This document shows, in pieces, positions 10,644-40,987 of a stretch of DNA of 64,000 nucleotides (its first letter is position 1; each line of letters starts with the position of its first letter). A program made the position numbers and the translations under genes. The stretch lies in NCBI GenBank assembly GCA_037131775.1, contig JBAXQK010000003.1, forward strand, positions 76,439-140,438, written 5' to 3'. The stretch is from Candidatus Uhrbacteria bacterium. Its GTDB lineage: Bacteria > Patescibacteriota > Patescibacteriia > UBA9934 > GWF2-40-263. The notes below the pieces were generated by a model. The model saw only the letters and a list, made by a program, of their open reading frames with translations. It did no database searches and was not told where the DNA came from.

Positions 10644-10773
10644 AGGGGAAAGAAACAAAATTCAAGAAGGGCAAGATGCAAAGAAGATTCAACGGCCAAG
10701 GGACAAAATTGAAATTTTACGTTTCAACTTTGATTCTTCCTTGTCTCTTGCCCTTCTTGCATTTGCCTCTTTC

Positions 10774-11781
10774 TCACAGTCCTCCGACGTGCTCCGCCAT
10801 CTCAACCAGCCGCACGGAGTACCCCCACTCGTTGTCGTACCACGCAAGGACCTTCACGAGGTCGCCGTCCACGACGCGCGTCATCTCGAGGTCGACGACC
10901 GACGAGAAGGTCGATCCGATGAAGTCGGACGAGACGAGCGGGACGTCGGACACGCCGAGGATTCCCTTGTAGCGCGGCGAGGCGGCAGCCTTCTTGAAGG
11001 CGTCGTTGATCTCCTCGACGGTCACCTTGCGCTTGAGCACGAAGGTAAAGTCGGACAGCGAGACGTCGAGCGTCGGAACGCGGATGGCGAGCCCGTCGAA
11101 CTTGCCCTTGAGCTCGGGGACGACCTCGGTCACGGCCTTCGCGGCCCCGGTCGACGTCGGCACGATGTTCACGAGCGCGGCGCGGGCGCGGCGCATGTCG
11201 GGGTGCATCTTCGGCGGCAGGCCGTCAACGATGTTCTGCTCGGCGGTCACGGAATGCACGGTCGTCATCATCGCCTTCTTCACGCCGAACAGCTCGTGCA
11301 TGATCTGCGCGACCGGAGCGATCGAGTTCGTGGTGCACGACGCGTTGTTCACGATCGCGTCCGAGCCCTTCGCGCTCTTGTGGTTCACGCCCATAAGAAA
11401 CGTCGGCACGTCCTTCGCCGGCGCCGAGATCACAACCTTCTTCGCGCCCGCGACAAGATGCGCGGACGCCTTCTCCTTGTCTGCGAACCGACCGGTCGAC
11501 TCGATGACGACGTCGACTTTGAATTGCTTCCACGGCAGCTTCGTCGGCTCCGTCTCCGCCACGATGGGGATGATCTGCCCGTCGACGATGAGGTTGTGCT
11601 CGTCAAACGAAACCTCGTGCGGCCAGGTGCGCATCACGGAATCATATTTCAAAAGGTGCGCGAGGATCTTCGGCTCGGTCAAGTCGTTGATCGCGACGAA
11701 CTTCGTCCCCTTCCGTCCGAATCCGATTTTGAACGCGTTGCGGCCGATTCGGCCAAAGCCGTTGATTGCGATGCGAAGCAT
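10774..11781 (-). CDS. gap: glyceraldehyde-3-phosphate dehydrogenase
   Basis: MLRIAINGFGRIGRNAFK...; SCTTNS active-site region; 335 aa. Confidence 0.93.
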   Translation of the reverse strand: MLRIAINGFGRIGRNAFKIGFGRKGTKFVAINDLTEPKILAHLLKYDSVMRTWPHEVSFDEHNLIVDGQIIPIVAETEPTKLPWKQFKVDVVIESTGRFADKEKASAHLVAGAKKVVISAPAKDVPTFLMGVNHKSAKGSDAIVNNASCTTNSIAPVAQIMHELFGVKKAMMTTVHSVTAEQNIVDGLPPKMHPDMRRARAALVNIVPTSTGAAKAVTEVVPELKGKFDGLAIRVPTLDVSLSDFTFVLKRKVTVEEINDAFKKAAASPRYKGILGVSDVPLVSSDFIGSTFSSVVDLEMTRVVDGDLVKVLAWYDNEWGYSVRLVEMAEHVGGL

Positions 11782-11787
11782 AGGAAT

Positions 11788-11821
11788 AGTCGTTGAGTCT
11801 TTGAGTCGTTAAGTCGCTGAG
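11788..11821. repeat. tandem 8-nt direct repeats (GAGTCGTT-like x4) in the gap 5' leader
   Basis: AGTCGTTG AGTCTTTG AGTCGTTA AGTCGCTG. No inverted partner seen. Confidence 0.7.
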
Positions 11822-19383: not shown

Positions 19384-19425
19384 CGGAGAATAACCCGTTA
19401 CTTTGCCAGTCTCAGCAAAGATTTT

Positions 19426-19477
19426 AAAAAACCGCTCAACATACCTCGCAGCTGCGAGGTATGTTGAGCGGTTTTTT
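19426..19477. terminator. bidirectional terminator, perfect 20-bp palindrome flanked by A6/T6
   Basis: aaaaaa CCGCTCAACATACCTCGCAG|CTGCGAGGTATGTTGAGCGG tttttt. Confidence 0.85.
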
Positions 19478-19484
19478 ATTTCCA

Positions 19485-23320: not shown

Positions 23321-23328
23321 GTGGAGGA

Positions 23329-23402
23329 TTGTAGGATAGTAGGAATGTAGCGCAGTAGGGGAAAAAACGCTACTTACCTACCGCCCTACCATCCTACCTC
23401 CT
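23329..23402. repeat. inverted array of tandem 8-nt repeats (GTAGGnnn x4 / nnnCCTAC x4)
   Basis: GTAGGATA GTAGGAAT GTAGCGCA GTAGGGGA aaaaacgctactta CCTACCGC CCTACCAT CCTACCTC. Lies between the stop of 23394..24317 and the ftsW start. Confidence 0.8.
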
Positions 23403-28304: not shown

Positions 28305-28333
28305 TTGACACGAATCCCCTCTTCCTGTATAGT
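28305..28333 (+). promoter_or_regulatory. consensus promoter TTGACA-17-TATAGT for secE-nusG
   Basis: TTGACA 28305-28310, TATAGT 28328-28333. A small GNRA hairpin (28343-28358) lies in the leader. Confidence 0.7.
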
Positions 28334-28596: not shown

Positions 28597-29142
28597 ATGC
28601 CAAAGCAAACAGCCAACTACGGCCGCCGCTGGTACGCGATCCACACGTACTCCGGATACGAGGACAACGTCTCCGAGGCGCTTCACCAGCGCATCGAGAC
28701 GATGGACATGCACGAGAAGATCTTCGACGTGCTCGTGCCGAAGGAGAAGAAGATCAAGATCAAGAACGGCAAGCGCAAGACCACGGAGGAAAAGATCTTC
28801 CCGGGCTACGTGCTGGTGGAGATGATCGTGACGGACGACTCGTGGTACGTGGTGCGCAACACGCCGAACGTCACCGGGTTCATCGGAACGGGAACGGTCC
28901 CGACGCCGATCGCGCCCGAGGAGATCGAGGCGCTTCTGAAGCGGACCCGCGTCGGCGAGCCGGAAACCACGCTCGACGTGGAGAAGGGATCGATCGTGAA
29001 GATCAACGACGGCCCGTTCAAGAACTTCGAGGGAAAGGTGTCGGCCATCGACGAGCAGCGCGGCAAGATCAAGGTTCTCGTGAACATGTTCGGCCGCGAG
29101 ACTCCTGTCGAGCTGGACTTCTTGCAGGTGCAGAAGGTGTAG
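28597..29142 (+). CDS. nusG: transcription termination/antitermination factor NusG
   Basis: ...RWYAIHTYSGYEDNV...; KOW motif region. Confidence 0.92.
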   Translation: MPKQTANYGRRWYAIHTYSGYEDNVSEALHQRIETMDMHEKIFDVLVPKEKKIKIKNGKRKTTEEKIFPGYVLVEMIVTDDSWYVVRNTPNVTGFIGTGTVPTPIAPEEIEALLKRTRVGEPETTLDVEKGSIVKINDGPFKNFEGKVSAIDEQRGKIKVLVNMFGRETPVELDFLQVQKV

Positions 29143-29145
29143 GCC

Positions 29146-29234
29146 GTCACAGATTACGGATTATACGGATGTACGGATTAGATACTTGGCCGAGTGTCTG
29201 ATCCGTACATCCTTACCCATCCGTAATCCGTGAC
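29146..29234. repeat. long imperfect hairpin from tandem heptads (TACGGAT x3 / ATCCGTA x3)
   Basis: gtcacagatTACGGATtaTACGGATgTACGGATtagatacttggccgagtgtctgATCCGTAcATCCtTAcccATCCGTAATCCGTgac. Immediately after the nusG stop. Confidence 0.8.
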
Positions 29235-29310
29235 ACAATTTCACTAACTAACATAGCAATGGTAGCCACCGGGCCACAAACCCCTTGGAATCCATTCAAA
29301 CAAAACTGCT

Positions 29311-29733
29311 ATGGCAAAGAAACTCATTACGCAGGTTAAGCTTCAGATCCCGGGTGCGGCTGCGACCCCGGCCCCGCCGGTCGGTCCGGCGCTCGGTCAG
29401 CACGGGCTGAACATCGCCAGCTTCGTGAAGCAGTTCAACGACGCGACGCAGAACCGCCGCGGAGAGACGGTTCCGGTCATCATCAACGTGTACGAGGACC
29501 GCAGCTTCGACTTCATCATGAAGGTGGCCCCGGCCTCCGGACTCATCGCGAAGGCCGCCGGCATCGCGAAGGGATCGGGCAAGCCGCTCACCGAGAAGGT
29601 CGGCAAGATCACGCAGGCCCAGCTCCGCGAAATCGCCGAGAAGAAGCTCCCGGACCTCAACACCTCGGACATCGACGCCGCCATGAAGATTATCGCCGGA
29701 ACGGCGCGCCAGATGGGAGTGGACATTGTCTAA
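29311..29733 (+). CDS. rplK: 50S ribosomal protein L11
   Basis: [35 protein letters not shown]... Confidence 0.95.
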
Positions 29734-29750
29734 ATTTAGGCAGAAGGCTG

Positions 29751-29819
29751 AAAGGCATTAGGCTTAAGGGTTTACAGCCCGGCGGACTTACGCCTTAAGC
29801 CTTAAGCCTTAAGCCTGAA
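29751..29819. repeat. hairpin from tandem heptads (GCCTTAA x3.5 with inverse AGGCTTAAGG arm)
   Basis: aAGGCTgaaAGGCattAGGCTTAAGGgtttacagcccggcggacttacGCCTTAAGCCTTAAGCCTTAAGCCTgaa. Between the rplK stop and the small membrane ORF. Confidence 0.8.
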
Positions 29820-29822
29820 CAT

Positions 29823-30188
29823 ATGACCAAAGGAGGATCGATCATTCTCAGAATCTACTTCTCGCTCGTGGCGTTCGTGACCCTGATGATTCTTATCTTC
29901 TCGGTTTCGGACCTCATCAACATCGTGCTGAAGACCTACGTGTTCACCGCCGCGGACCGCCCGGCGTACACGAGCTACTGCGACCTCACCACGCAGACCC
30001 AGGCGCAGTGCGACACGCAGAAGAAGAATGACGAGGAATCGTCCATGGCCGTCAAGCAGCAGGACGCCGTCCGCGACATCGCTCTCCTCCTCGTCGCTTC
30101 CCCGCTGTTCTGGCTCCACTTCCGTGTCGTGTACCGAGATCTGATGGGAGACAAGGAAGAGGAGAAGAACGACAAGAAAAAAGCTTAA
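29823..30188 (+). CDS. small membrane protein (121 aa, 2 TM), unknown; inserted between rplK and rplA
   Basis: MTKGGSIILRIYFSLVAFVTLMILIF...VRDIALLLVASPLFWLHF... plus a K/E-rich tail. Confidence 0.5.
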   Translation: MTKGGSIILRIYFSLVAFVTLMILIFSVSDLINIVLKTYVFTAADRPAYTSYCDLTTQTQAQCDTQKKNDEESSMAVKQQDAVRDIALLLVASPLFWLHFRVVYRDLMGDKEEEKNDKKKA

Positions 30189-30236
30189 TACTAACCTGAT
30201 CGTGGAAGGCGAGAGCCGTTACACCACGCAAATCAT

Positions 30237-30920
30237 ATGGCAGGAAAGCGCTTTACGGAGGCCAAGAAGCTCGTCACGGACAAGAAGGTTTACTCGATCG
30301 TCGATGGAATCGCGCTCCTCAAGAGCTTCCCGAAGGCCGGCTTCGACGAGGGCGTCGAGCTGCACGTGAACCTCGGCATCGACCCGAGCAAGGGCGACCA
30401 GCAGGTGCGCGGAACGATCGCGTTCCCGCACGGAGTCGGAAAGTCCAAGCGCGTCGCCGTGTTCGTGGAGGCCGCCAAGGAAGCCGAGGCCAAGGCCGCG
30501 GGCGCCGACATCGTCGGAGGAGAGGACCTCATCACCGAGATCGCGGCCAAGGGCATCATCAACTTCGACGTGGCCATCGCCACGCCGGCCATGATGCCGA
30601 AGATCGCCAAGCTCGCGAAGCTCCTCGGACCGAAGGGCCTCATGCCAAACCCGAAGAACGACACCGTCGGCCCGAACGTCACCAAGATGATCGCCGAGCA
30701 GAAGGCCGGAAAGCAGAGCTTCAAGAACGACAACACCGCCAACGTCCACCAGATCGTCGGCCGCGTGTCCATGACGGACGCCCAGCTCAAGGAGAACCTC
30801 GCCCCGTTCGTCGACCAGCTCCGCAAGATGAAGCCGGCGTCCTCCAAGGGCATCTACTTCAAGAGCGCGACGCTGACGACCACGATGGGCCCGGGGATCA
30901 AGGTTGACCTCAACTCGTAG
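30237..30920 (+). CDS. rplA: 50S ribosomal protein L1
   Basis: MAGKRFTEAKKLVTDKKVYSIVDGIALLK... Confidence 0.95.
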   Translation: MAGKRFTEAKKLVTDKKVYSIVDGIALLKSFPKAGFDEGVELHVNLGIDPSKGDQQVRGTIAFPHGVGKSKRVAVFVEAAKEAEAKAAGADIVGGEDLITEIAAKGIINFDVAIATPAMMPKIAKLAKLLGPKGLMPNPKNDTVGPNVTKMIAEQKAGKQSFKNDNTANVHQIVGRVSMTDAQLKENLAPFVDQLRKMKPASSKGIYFKSATLTTTMGPGIKVDLNS

Positions 30921-30959: not shown

Positions 30960-31610
30960 ATGATATTGTCACGCCAAGACATCCTCGCGCAGATCGCCTC
31001 GGGCGGAATCCGGTTCACGCCGGAGATCGACCAGTTTCAGCTGCAGCCGCACGCGATCGACTTGCGACTGGGATACAAGTTTTTGATCCCGCGCAACTGG
31101 ACGTTCGACGAGAAGGGCCGCCGCGCGATCAAGGTCTCGATCGACGACGCCGATGCCCATCCCGAGCAGTTCGACGAGGTCATCCTCAAGCCCGGTCAGT
31201 TCTTCGACCTTCTCCCGAACGAGTTCGTCATCGGCACCAGCCTCGAGCGCATCGAGCTCAACGCGCCGAACCTGATGGCGATCCTCTTTCCCAGGACGTC
31301 GACGAATCGCCGCGGCATCGACCTGTCGCTCTCGGGAATCATCGACGTGGGCTACAAGGGCAACCTCATCTTCCCCATGAAGAACGAGGCGGGCAACCAG
31401 GTCATCCGCGTGTATCCGGGCGAACGAGTGTGCCAGGTGGTATTCGAGGAACTCAAGACCCCGTTAACGTCCGAGGAGGCGAATCTCCACGGGATGTCGG
31501 CGGCGAAGTACTCGGAAAGCGACGGCGCGTACCGGCTCGACAAGGATGACGAGCGGACGCTGCTGGTGGAAGGGAAATTGGACGAAATGAAAAAGCGGTT
31601 CGGGGTCTAG
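30960..31610 (+). CDS. dcd: dCTP deaminase
   Basis: ...IQPHAIDLRLG...; dUTPase-fold Dcd family. Confidence 0.8.
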   Translation: MILSRQDILAQIASGGIRFTPEIDQFQLQPHAIDLRLGYKFLIPRNWTFDEKGRRAIKVSIDDADAHPEQFDEVILKPGQFFDLLPNEFVIGTSLERIELNAPNLMAILFPRTSTNRRGIDLSLSGIIDVGYKGNLIFPMKNEAGNQVIRVYPGERVCQVVFEELKTPLTSEEANLHGMSAAKYSESDGAYRLDKDDERTLLVEGKLDEMKKRFGV

Positions 31611-31628
31611 CCCGAACCGCTTTTTTTG
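31594..31628. terminator. bidirectional terminator between dcd and subtilase
   Basis: aaaa AGCGGTTCGGG gtctag CCCGAACCGCT ttttttt. The dcd stop is in the loop. Confidence 0.85.
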
Positions 31629-39308: not shown

Positions 39309-40178
39309 ATGGCCCTTATCACCATCGGAGAGCTCATCGACCGCTCCTGGGAGCACTATCACAAGGAATTCTCCAGCCTCATGAGCGTTTCCGGATGGAT
39401 CCTGCTCGTGGCAATCTTCAACGTGGCGACGCTAGCGCTCTACCCGTCCGCGTCCCGGCTGCTCACCGTCGACACGACGCTTACGAAACCGGAGGCGGTC
39501 GGCGTGGCCATGTACGCCTTTTCCAACTGGGTTCTCGGGCCGCTGCTCGGTCTCTGGATCTTCATCACGCTCATCCGTCTCATCCGCTCGCAGCTGTCCG
39601 GAAAGCGCGCGGGGATCCGGGAGGCGCTCGCCGACGGAAAGAAGTACTTCCTTCCCACGCTGGCCGTCACCGCCATGATCTTCCTGATCCTCGTGGCCGT
39701 CGTCCTGATCGGGTTCGGACCGTCGCTCATCCTGTCCCTTTTGGCGACCGTCACGAAGCTCGGCTTCCTCACCGTTCTCGCGACGATTTCCCTGGTCGTC
39801 GGCGTGATGGCTTCCCTCGTCCTTGGAATCCGCTGGTCCGTCCACTACTACTTCGCGCCGTTTACCCTTCTCGTGGACGACGTGCGCGGCAAGGCCGCGC
39901 TGACCGCGGCGCGCAAGCTGGTCGACGGACGGTTCTGGCAGGTCCTCATCCGCCTCGCCCTCCCGAAGATCTTGTTCATCCTCGTTGGCGTTCTCCTCAT
40001 GGCGCTGGTCCAGTTCGTCTTCTCCGTCGTGAGCAGCGCGTTCGTCGGACTCAGCGTCGACGTCCAGCTCCGCATCTCCACGATCGTCCTGTCCGTACTC
40101 TCCACGCTCGTCGCCGCCCTTATCAACCCGCTCATCGTCGCCTCCGACCTGATGCTTTATCAATCTTTGAAAAGGTAG
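39309..40178 (+). CDS. polytopic membrane protein, unknown (paralogue 1)
   Basis: MALITIGELIDRSWEHYHKEF... about 6 TM. Paralogous to the next gene. Confidence 0.6.
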   Translation: MALITIGELIDRSWEHYHKEFSSLMSVSGWILLVAIFNVATLALYPSASRLLTVDTTLTKPEAVGVAMYAFSNWVLGPLLGLWIFITLIRLIRSQLSGKRAGIREALADGKKYFLPTLAVTAMIFLILVAVVLIGFGPSLILSLLATVTKLGFLTVLATISLVVGVMASLVLGIRWSVHYYFAPFTLLVDDVRGKAALTAARKLVDGRFWQVLIRLALPKILFILVGVLLMALVQFVFSVVSSAFVGLSVDVQLRISTIVLSVLSTLVAALINPLIVASDLMLYQSLKR

Positions 40179-40242
40179 GTAGTTTGTGGTGAGTCGTGAG
40201 TAGTTTGAATACCACTCACTACAAACCACTCACTACAAACTA
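40179..40242. repeat. inverted array of tandem 7-nt repeats (CCACTCA/CTACAAA x2 vs complement)
   Basis: GTAGTTTGTGGTGAGTCGTGAGTAGTTTG aata CCACTCACTACAAACCACTCACTACAAACTA. Between the two paralogous membrane-protein genes. Confidence 0.75.
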
Positions 40243-40249
40243 ACTCGAT

Positions 40250-40987
40250 ATGACCTCCGTCCCAAACCTTCTGCGCGCGTCCTTTCAGCTGTACCGAACC
40301 CACGCGAAGCTCTTTGTCGGATACGTCTCCTGGCTCCTGCTCTCGTACGCCGCGATCGTGCTTGTGACGCTCATTCCAAACGAGGGGGTCCGCATGGGCC
40401 TCGGCCTTGCCGTCGAGCTCGCCGACGGGATGCTCTGGCTCTTCATCGGGGTGATCATGATCGTCCTGACACACCAGCTCGGGAATGGCAAGGAAATCGA
40501 CACGAACGTCGTTCCCCTGTATGCCCTTTCCGCCCTCGGGTCCTTCGCCTGGGTCGGACTCCTTCAGGCGCTCACGGTGGCAGGCGGTTTTCTCCTGCTT
40601 GTCATCCCGGGGTTGATTTTCCTCGTCTGGTTCGGCTTTGCCCAACAGGCGCTGCTCCTGGACGGAAAGAGGGGCCTCGACGCGCTGTCGGCCAGCCGCG
40701 ACCTCGCGAAAGGGCGTTTCTTCGTGGCCGCGCTCTACCAGCTCGGCGGCCCGGTTCTCGTCGGGATCGCCTACCTCGTCGTCCTCTCCCTCGCCTATGT
40801 CGCCCTGTCCGCCCTCACGCACACGCCGATCGAGGACATCTTCGGCGACACTCCCCCGCTCTGGGCCGACATGCTCGGCACGATCGGAAACATCTTCCTC
40901 CTTCCGATGTTGTCGATCTATGGGGTGATGGCATACAAGGAGATGAAGACGAGCGTCCCCGCAAAAACAGAACCGGCAAATTCGTAA
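40250..40987 (+). CDS. polytopic membrane protein, unknown (paralogue 2)
   Basis: MTSVPNLLRASFQLYRTHAKLF... Same architecture as 39309..40178. Confidence 0.6.
   Translation: MTSVPNLLRASFQLYRTHAKLFVGYVSWLLLSYAAIVLVTLIPNEGVRMGLGLAVELADGMLWLFIGVIMIVLTHQLGNGKEIDTNVVPLYALSALGSFAWVGLLQALTVAGGFLLLVIPGLIFLVWFGFAQQALLLDGKRGLDALSASRDLAKGRFFVAALYQLGGPVLVGIAYLVVLSLAYVALSALTHTPIEDIFGDTPPLWADMLGTIGNIFLLPMLSIYGVMAYKEMKTSVPAKTEPANS

Follow-up and report, generated by a model that had tools for sequence, protein, structure and literature searches.

What is the tandem-repeat element that separates rplK from a small open reading frame (ORF) in the L11 operon of a Candidatus Uhrbacteria genome, and how did it come to be there? 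The question was raised by a 64,000-nt stretch of DNA (positions 76,439 to 140,438 of contig JBAXQK010000003.1, assembly GCA_037131775.1), called here the window, which has a GC content of 62%, is about 92% coding and encodes proteins pointing to Candidatus Uhrbacteria, a member of the Candidate Phyla Radiation (CPR). A first-pass annotation of the window had noticed GCCTTAA heptads facing an inverse array behind the rplK stop codon, and had offered three readings: an autoregulatory site for ribosomal protein L1, an attenuator of the small ORF, or the footprint of a mobile element that had delivered this ORF. The analysis described here shows the element to be a strain-specific member of a class of tandem-repeat hairpins with fast turnover. 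Our favoured explanation, to which we give about an even chance, is that this strain-specific hairpin of approximately 85 nt would have originated by slippage and template switching and would act as an intercistronic RNA stem-loop.

rplK (L11; Pfam Ribosomal_L11_N and Ribosomal_L11) occupies positions 29311-29733 of the plus strand, with its TAA stop codon at 29731-29733, and the ATG of the small ORF, a DUF5671 gene, is at 29823. The 89-nt spacer between them holds an imperfect palindrome of about 85 nt. Its 3' arm (29792-29819, plus strand), defined by direct reading, Tandem Repeats Finder (TRF) and RNA folds, is C-rich and G-poor, and consists of three GCCTTAA copies (29792-29798, 29799-29805 and 29806-29812), a partial fourth unit GCCT (29813-29816) that brings the total to 3.6, and a final GAA. 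TRF reported 29787-29816 as an array of period 7 with 4.3 copies, 95% matches and a score of 53. The 5' arm (29735-29772, plus strand), defined by the sequence, inverted-repeat pairs and RNA folds, is G-rich and C-poor and can be read as the degenerate inverse units AGGCAGA, AGGCTGA, AAGGCATT, AGGCTTA and AGG. The degenerate inverse array spans 29738-29769: the first three units are at 29738-29744, 29745-29751 and 29752-29759, and 3' of them, at 29760-29769, lies the perfect inverse arm AGGCTTAAGG. The 3' arm is thus homogeneous and the 5' arm degenerate. Between the arms the apical region GTTTACAGCCCGGCGGACTTAC (29773-29791, plus strand) is predicted to form two small sub-stems, both in the minimum free energy and in the centroid structure.

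The RNA of 29731-29830 was predicted to fold into a single long bulged stem-loop with -38.3 kcal/mol, compared with -24.9 ± 3.1 kcal/mol for 200 dinucleotide shuffles (z = -4.33), none of which folded as well. In the base of the stem 29735-29741 pairs with 29813-29819, so that it starts 1 nt past the rplK stop and ends 3 nt short of the DUF5671 ATG. The limits originally drawn, 29751-29819, were right at the 3' end and have to be extended at the other, as the real element begins about 16 nt further upstream. The 89-nt spacer was found base for base the same in three independent assemblies (L044-L046, taken from ENA, JGI and Logan) with 99.8% identity to the window, which shows that the hairpin is not an assembly artefact; it is real and stable within the strain. 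With its at least three tandem copies of a 7-nt unit it qualifies as an intergenic heptamer simple-sequence repeat, and across the four assemblies no copy-number polymorphism of the array, of the phase-variation type, was seen.

The situation is very different when relatives are compared. Forty-three related loci were obtained by looking up contigs that encode homologues and by scanning species-representative genomes. The usual spacers in these loci are about 25-30 nt between rplK and the ORF, 48-57 nt between the ORF and rplA, and 57-66 nt between nusG and rplK, and in most of the loci the rplK-DUF5671 spacer is 10-36 nt long and repeat-free. Four relatives without the heptad element share the conserved 28-nt spacer TCAGTCCGAAAGGACRAACAAGACTCAT, and the identity of their flanking coding DNA to that of the window is 95-98% (L014), 90-96% (L047), 89-96% (L015) and 88-94% (L001). 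The heptad hairpin was confined to one strain cluster. If the nusG-rplK, rplK-ORF and ORF-rplA spacers are considered in this order, the window carries TACGGAT, GCCTTAA and no hairpin; L001 carries TACGGAT, none and TCGAAGG; L014 carries none, none and TCGAAGG; L012/L013 carry TTGGTAAA, GTGGTAG and TGGTAAA; and L047 and L015 have no hairpin in any of the three. The same three spacers are therefore occupied by different, unrelated or no hairpins among genomes that are 88-98% identical in the flanking coding sequence (CDS). Judged from this comparison, the hairpin is a recent, strain-specific addition in place of the usual 28-nt spacer.

Expansion of these spacers was not limited to the window strain. 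The rplK-DUF5671 spacer is expanded in about nine lineages; seven of the expanded spacers were folded, and most gave hairpins, with unrelated units. Further out, independent expansions of this spacer were found in L019 (TAGTAAG), L020 (AGCCCTCAA), L024 (AGCCATT / GCTAAAA), L034, L038 and L041. In the expanded nusG-rplK and ORF-rplA spacers the hairpin stands directly past the upstream stop codon and 5' of the conserved leader of the next gene, with L005 as the sole exception. The spacer of L024 (5665-5865) has three copies of AGCCATT and then a long GCTAAAA heptad array broken by Ns; metagenome assemblies are apparently prone to breaks and gaps at tandem heptad arrays of this kind.

The key to what the heptad element is came from its comparison with the element in the nusG-rplK spacer (29146-29234, plus strand), with which it shares the architecture and not the sequence, just as had been noted before. 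This sister element, recognised by inverted repeats, TRF and folding, is built from TACGGAT-type units of 8-9 nt and folds with -56 kcal/mol; the window shares it with L001/L002, whereas it is absent from L014, L047 and L015, and replaced by the TTGGTAAA hairpin in L012/L013. To see how widespread such structures are, a census was made in 34 non-redundant Uhrbacteria loci (GC 41-66%) by an anti-diagonal stem scan, which was used instead of a self-BLAST search because the latter yielded almost no matches. The 51.9 kb of intergenic DNA contained 58 stems, 16 of them terminator-like and 28 with repetitive arms and no T-run. The corresponding numbers for 480 kb of coding DNA were 12, 4 and 1, and for dinucleotide shuffles of the intergenic DNA (mean of 20) 0.3, 0.1 and 0.05. 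TRF found 28 intergenic arrays of period 7, compared with 20 in about nine times as much CDS; period-7 and period-8 arrays were approximately ten-fold denser in intergenic than in coding DNA, and at least 34 of 56 intergenic arrays had an inverse partner nearby. There is thus a lineage-wide class of Uhrbacteria hairpins that is defined by architecture and not by sequence: its members are intergenic, 60-100 nt long, and have in each arm three to four tandem units of 7-9 nt, the unit varying by locus and strain. Their start is usually no more than a few nucleotides away from the stop codon upstream. The heptad element agrees with this description in being intergenic, in its length, in its tandem arms with a G-rich 5' side, in the lack of a T-run and in its locus-specific unit.

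Other members were found in the same genome. A AGGATTGT / CCTACC octamer hairpin at 23325-23395 (minus strand) fills the spacer between two minus-strand genes, and a GTGAGT/GGTAGT-type hairpin at 40177-40245 (plus strand) ends 4 nt before the ATG at 40250; both were detected by TRF, stem scan and folding. A long intergenic hairpin of related type, with CAAGAAGGG units and -45 kcal/mol on the transcribed strand, is at 10658-10764 (minus strand). In addition, TRF detected an octamer array with a single arm, made of 4.2 copies of CAACGACT as read on the transcribed strand, at 11788-11821 (minus strand); it lies 7 nt before the ATG of the gene 10774-11781, is C/A-rich on the transcribed strand and has no inverted partner. 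About 6 kb past the left end of the window, a near-perfect hairpin with 37-nt arms and TACGAACCTGC units (L054:16218-16298), unique in sequence, ends 10 nt before a gene for a UvrD-like helicase. The seven hairpins seen in this genome all differ in sequence, and no family-wide motif could be recognised.

The class has a marked polarity. The G-rich arm was the 5' one in 19 of 20 non-redundant members (p = 4e-5), whereas terminator-like stems (13:12) and other stems (11:10) showed no bias. Reverse complementation preserves this chirality, which is therefore uninformative as to which strand is transcribed. Four of the five window hairpins folded better as the transcribed strand; neither arm was systematically more regular (11:7), and the hairpins between co-directional genes were not in excess over the base rate. 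Most confidently placed ATG starts in the window are without a Shine-Dalgarno motif, and positions -20 to -1 of conserved genes are G-poor (13-14% G), which suggests Shine-Dalgarno-independent initiation in this lineage. In such a start context a hairpin abutting the start codon would be tolerable only if its G-poor arm is the 3' one, and we infer that this G-poverty of start regions is the preferred explanation of the chirality.

The role assigned to the small ORF had to be revised. The DUF5671 gene (29823-30188, plus strand) encodes a two-transmembrane protein of 121 aa and is a real gene: its GC content at third and second codon positions (0.83 and 0.33) resembles that of real neighbouring genes, the protein has 64 homologue clusters, 63 of them with PF18920, and the Pfam DUF5671 score is 35.1 bits (cut-off 28.4). 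In the alignment the N-terminus and two cysteines are invariant, and there are two hydrophobic helices. The idea that this ORF was inserted and interrupts an rplK-rplA pair did not survive the comparison: the order rplK-DUF5671-rplA was found in 43/43 related loci fetched, with protein identities from 100% down to 35%. Its synteny shows the gene to be a long-standing member of the L11 operon throughout the clade, and an unusual one there. As it has the same position in all 43 loci, it is the context of the hairpin and was not delivered by it. When the rplK-rplA spacing was compared in relatives, as had been proposed, the ORF was found to be kept and the repeat mostly missing, the very outcome that had been named as refuting the proposal. 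The footprint of an ORF-delivering mobile element is suggested by adjacency only, and its probability is practically negligible with L014, L047, L001 and L015 having the same ORF behind a repeat-free 28-nt spacer, most other loci being repeat-free as well, and the hairpin occurring in one strain cluster.

How the hairpin might have arisen and what it might do can be outlined as follows. Replication slippage would build a G-poor heptad array in the leader just 5' of a start codon, and the one-armed array at 11788-11821 is a plausible precursor of this kind. A short template switch (fold-back copying) would then produce the inverse array, and continued slippage would homogenise the 3' arm. Template switching would also explain why the hairpins differ between close relatives. 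The heptamer-repeat excess in prokaryotes and its explanation by slippage have been summarised (PMC4679880), and the creation of RNA hairpins de novo by template switching is documented (PMC8794818); its application to hairpins made of tandem arrays is a step that we infer. The secE-nusG-rplK-DUF5671-rplA block has a single promoter-like site (TTGACA-17-TATAGT, 11/12 matches; 28305-28333, plus strand), which implies transcription of the hairpin as part of a polycistronic mRNA, where it would fold into the -38 kcal/mol stem-loop. The base of this stem would hold the stop codon of rplK and the start region of DUF5671 together. The stem would be expected to form a barrier to 3' exonucleases, with a stabilising effect on the rplK segment of the transcript, and to occlude the Shine-Dalgarno-less landing site of the membrane-protein gene, so that DUF5671 would be translated less, or mainly by ribosomes that had opened the stem while terminating on rplK. 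In this scheme the element would be dispensable, tuning expression and not acting as a control switch.

A bolder version, which we consider doubtful, would make these hairpins an undescribed self-generating class of Uhrbacteria, and perhaps of other CPR bacteria, positioned after stop codons, 5'-G-rich and 3'-C-rich, and selected as RNA: the 3' arm would be a landing pad for ribosomes and the 5' arm would mask it until the upstream ribosome terminates. If true, these hairpins would give organisms without Shine-Dalgarno recognition an evolvable means, not tied to any sequence, of setting the translational coupling and the stability of cistrons in their polycistronic mRNAs, and they would turn over faster than the surrounding genes diverge.

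Several observations weigh against the favoured explanation. Alignment of the ancestral 28-nt spacer to the heptad element gave a weak and unconvincing similarity (GAAAGG, GGAC), which was not used; the spacer could not be traced convincingly inside the element, so that for this copy an origin in place is conjectural. Paralogous hairpins in L019 and L012 that share even their loops (see below) fit copy-and-paste spread better than independent origin in place. Many class members are 30-95 nt away from the next start codon, thus occlusion of the start site cannot be their general role, and the existence of close relatives without the hairpin means that any effect it has is non-essential. Transcribed-strand mismatches of G-U and A-C type occurred in a ratio of 23:18, which gives no signal for RNA over DNA. 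Finally, the functional role of the hairpin in the mRNA is purely hypothetical.

Two serious rivals have to be weighed against this explanation. The hairpin might be a neutral by-product, an accident of slippage and template switching at the DNA level in a lineage with weak repair, which is tolerated in the unconstrained stretch between stop codon and leader and has no role as RNA. We regard this as quite possible, though less probable than the favoured explanation. The variable presence among genomes 90-98% identical in the flanking genes, the uniqueness in sequence of every copy in the window, the mismatch ratio just mentioned and the sporadic occurrence of similar hairpins in unrelated DNA all fit it. 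The latter are AAGGCTT/AAGCCTT hairpins found singly, and isolated in their neighbourhoods, in five unrelated metagenome contigs (L048-L052, GC 37-66%); the one in L048, for example, is flanked by lgt and rluD, and the one in L049 follows a tRNA-synthetase-like gene and matches the 5' arm of the window at 20/21 nt (GAAAGGCATNAGGCTTAAGG). These hairpins share the unit and not the loops and flanks, which indicates recurrence and not homology. Neutrality is harder to reconcile with the retention of 60-100-nt inserts in compact genomes, with stems that stay well paired, and with the 19:1 chirality, which requires selection or a very specific mutational bias. It also does not account for 'hairpin d', shared by the window and L001, which is about 98-99% identical between the two, whereas the block containing it is only 93.7% identical. 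The other serious rival, a small mobile palindromic element resembling miniature inverted-repeat transposable elements (MITEs) or repetitive extragenic palindromic (REP) sequences, inserted after the rplK stop and having its tandem units as a family property, we consider unlikely for this copy. Copy-and-paste spread does occur in the group: three hairpins of L019 have both arms and loop in common (mean identity 71%), two further L019 loci have AAACGAC/GTTTGTC hairpins, and two TGGTAAA hairpins of L012 are 80% identical. Mobile palindromes also land in these operon spacers, as is seen from a complex palindrome of 130-165 nt that is 83% identical between L005:2915-3050 (DUF5671-rplA spacer) and L030:3915-4080 (nusG-rplK spacer), has compensatory changes and looks like a mobile structured element; it is unrelated to the heptad hairpin and has no Rfam match. 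On the other hand, no second GCCTTAA or TACGGAT element was present in the 64-kb window or in 9 kb past its left end, the scan of JGI metagenomes gave from this organism only the orthologous locus L053, this copy shows neither a target-site duplication nor terminal inverted repeats apart from its arms, and there is no common unit sequence that a transposase could recognise.

The remaining readings came from the first-pass annotation. A transcription attenuator or terminator lowering rplK read-through into the DUF5671 gene is very unlikely. A strong stem-loop (-38 kcal/mol) does separate a ribosomal gene with high expression from the gene of a membrane protein, but it is followed by GAACAUAUG and not by a U-tract, the downstream rplA needs the read-through, and there are relatives without the element. 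The promoter and terminator scan scored no promoter- or terminator-like site at either repeat element (nusG-rplK or rplK-DUF5671), although canonical terminators with hairpin and T-run are plentiful in the genome. Two perfect or near-perfect palindromes located between an A-run and a T-run, at 19425-19478 and 31590-31625, are candidate bidirectional intrinsic terminators; they indicate that canonical terminators are used here and are distinct from the repeat hairpins. The reading as an L1 autoregulatory site draws on position, as several phyla have L1 sites in the interval from rplK to rplA (PMC3616713) in which the hairpin is found, but the chance that it is such a site is minimal. The hairpin is not conserved, not even where the flanking genes of two genomes are about 95% identical, and its absence from L014, L047, L001 and L015 is at odds with the conservation and covariation expected of an L1 site; inspection of 29735-29819 revealed no L1 core of the GGGAG...ACC type, which is described with a G-A pair and an unpaired A (PMC3616713), and a conserved, covarying mimic of the L1 stalk is present nearby, at 30199-30230.

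The element resembles several known systems in part. Like REP, BIME and REPIN sequences, the Uhrbacteria hairpins are short imperfect intercistronic palindromes, typically located just after stop codons and present in some strains but not in others. In transcripts, REPs are known to stop 3' exonucleases and to stabilise the cistron that precedes them. REPs are, however, high-copy families with one conserved sequence per genome and a GTAG-type head recognised by the RAYT transposase, whereas each hairpin in the window has its own sequence, with internally tandem-repetitive arms and no family-wide motif. A REP/REPIN assignment was rejected on the ground that the heptad element is single-copy in 64 kb plus 9 kb and that the hairpins of this genome differ in sequence. 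An integron attC site was also rejected, as there are no R''/R' cores (RYYYAAC ... GTTRRRY) at the ends of 29734-29822 and the flanks are syntenic core genes and not cassettes. RNase III processing stem-loops, such as those of phage T7 early mRNA and of the E. coli rplL-rpoB spacer, are conserved and experimentally mapped. They are likewise long, imperfect, bulged stems between cistrons of polycistronic, including ribosomal, mRNA; here the stem is known from a predicted fold.

Heptamer direct repeats, known as TAACTGA of Beggiatoaceae, cyanobacteria and Bacteroidetes (PMC4679880) and as the short tandemly repeated repetitive (STRR) sequences of cyanobacteria, also form tandem arrays of 7-nt units that are almost exclusively intergenic, and the TAACTGA repeats end a few nucleotides before starts lacking a Shine-Dalgarno motif, including those in ribosomal-protein operons (PMC4679880). 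They vary between strains in 7-nt steps, have one unit genome-wide and are direct in 169/170 sets (PMC4679880), in contrast to the Uhrbacteria arrays, which have locus-specific units and are paired in at least 60% of the cases with an inverse array as a hairpin. Template-switch hairpins (PMC8794818; PMC5453318) share with the element the one-step, lineage-specific formation of an inverted copy beside its source; they have been described for ordinary sequence and not for tandem arrays, are not reported to have a 5'-G-rich chirality, and provide a mechanism only. The L1-binding leader of L11-operon mRNA (PMC3616713; PMC2175363) belongs to the same operon and can have a location between rplK and rplA, but the heptad hairpin lacks every defining feature of it, and the candidate is the site at 30199-30230. 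At the gathering threshold Rfam gave no match in the whole window, nor did it give any in L005, L030 or L026; at E <= 10 the only matches in 29100-30300 were plant and animal microRNA hairpins to the nusG-rplK palindrome, which we regard as spurious. A literature search for intergenic repeat hairpins in CPR/Patescibacteria returned nothing relevant, and within its incomplete coverage hairpins that combine inverted tandem arrays, units specific to the locus and a fixed chirality were not found described, for CPR bacteria or elsewhere.

These results correct the annotation of the locus: the probable L1 site is at 30199-30230, the DUF5671 gene is an old resident, and the heptad hairpin is recent and dispensable. 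They also reveal a population of intergenic hairpins that can be recognised by architecture alone and is missed by Rfam, by repeat-family clustering and by REP finders. If the hairpins act as RNA, they would offer a rare chance to watch the birth and death of structured mRNA elements de novo between close strains, and could show how operons are tuned in bacteria without Shine-Dalgarno-led initiation; if they are neutral, they would be a clean natural record of slippage and template-switch mutagenesis in genomes with reduced repair. In either case they are useful as strain markers, and they are a hazard for assembly (one relative has a gap inside such an array).

The local gene order is terminator, strong promoter-like site, secE, nusG, rplK, the 121-aa ORF, rplA and dcd, and the probable L1 autoregulatory site, GUGG(A/G)AG-GC-GAGA-GC-CGUUACACCAC (30199-30230, plus strand), is located 6 nt before the rplA ATG. 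The motif GUGGGAG-[hairpin of variable sequence and length]-G-N5-ACCAC precedes rplA in 32/33 lineages, at a distance of 3-10 nt from the start codon (134 nt in L005). Its outer stem is invariant and its inner stem covaries: the counts are CG 14, GC 12, UA 3 and AU 2 at one of its pairs, and CG 21, UA 7 and UG 2 at the next. The motif matches the core of the E. coli 23S segment GGUGGGAGGC...GCCGACC..AUACCACC; by BLAST, the segment GGUGGGAGGC...GCCGACCUUGAAAUACCACCC is 23S rRNA in all 5426 E. coli genomes, and we take it to be the L1 stalk. According to Fu et al. (PMC3616713), Actinobacteria, Cyanobacteria and Chloroflexi have L1-binding RNAs immediately 5' of rplA, and Firmicutes have dual sites. 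It is thus probable, from motif and covariation, that L1 control is exerted through this mimic of the 23S L1 stalk and not through the heptad hairpin. The motif reads GUGGAAG in the window strain and in the three 99.8% identical assemblies, and GUGGGAG in the other 30 aligned sequences, so that the window strain has a G-to-A change at an otherwise invariant position. Changes of this kind have served in experiments to eliminate the binding of L1.

A second conserved structured leader, NUGG-UNG-C[variable hairpin]G-GAAU-CCAN, was noticed at 29259-29295, about 18 nt before the rplK ATG. It was found in approximately 24/32 lineages, has compensatory changes in 5/8 pairs and no Rfam match, and could represent either an additional site for L1, as known from Firmicutes, or another ribosomal-protein leader.

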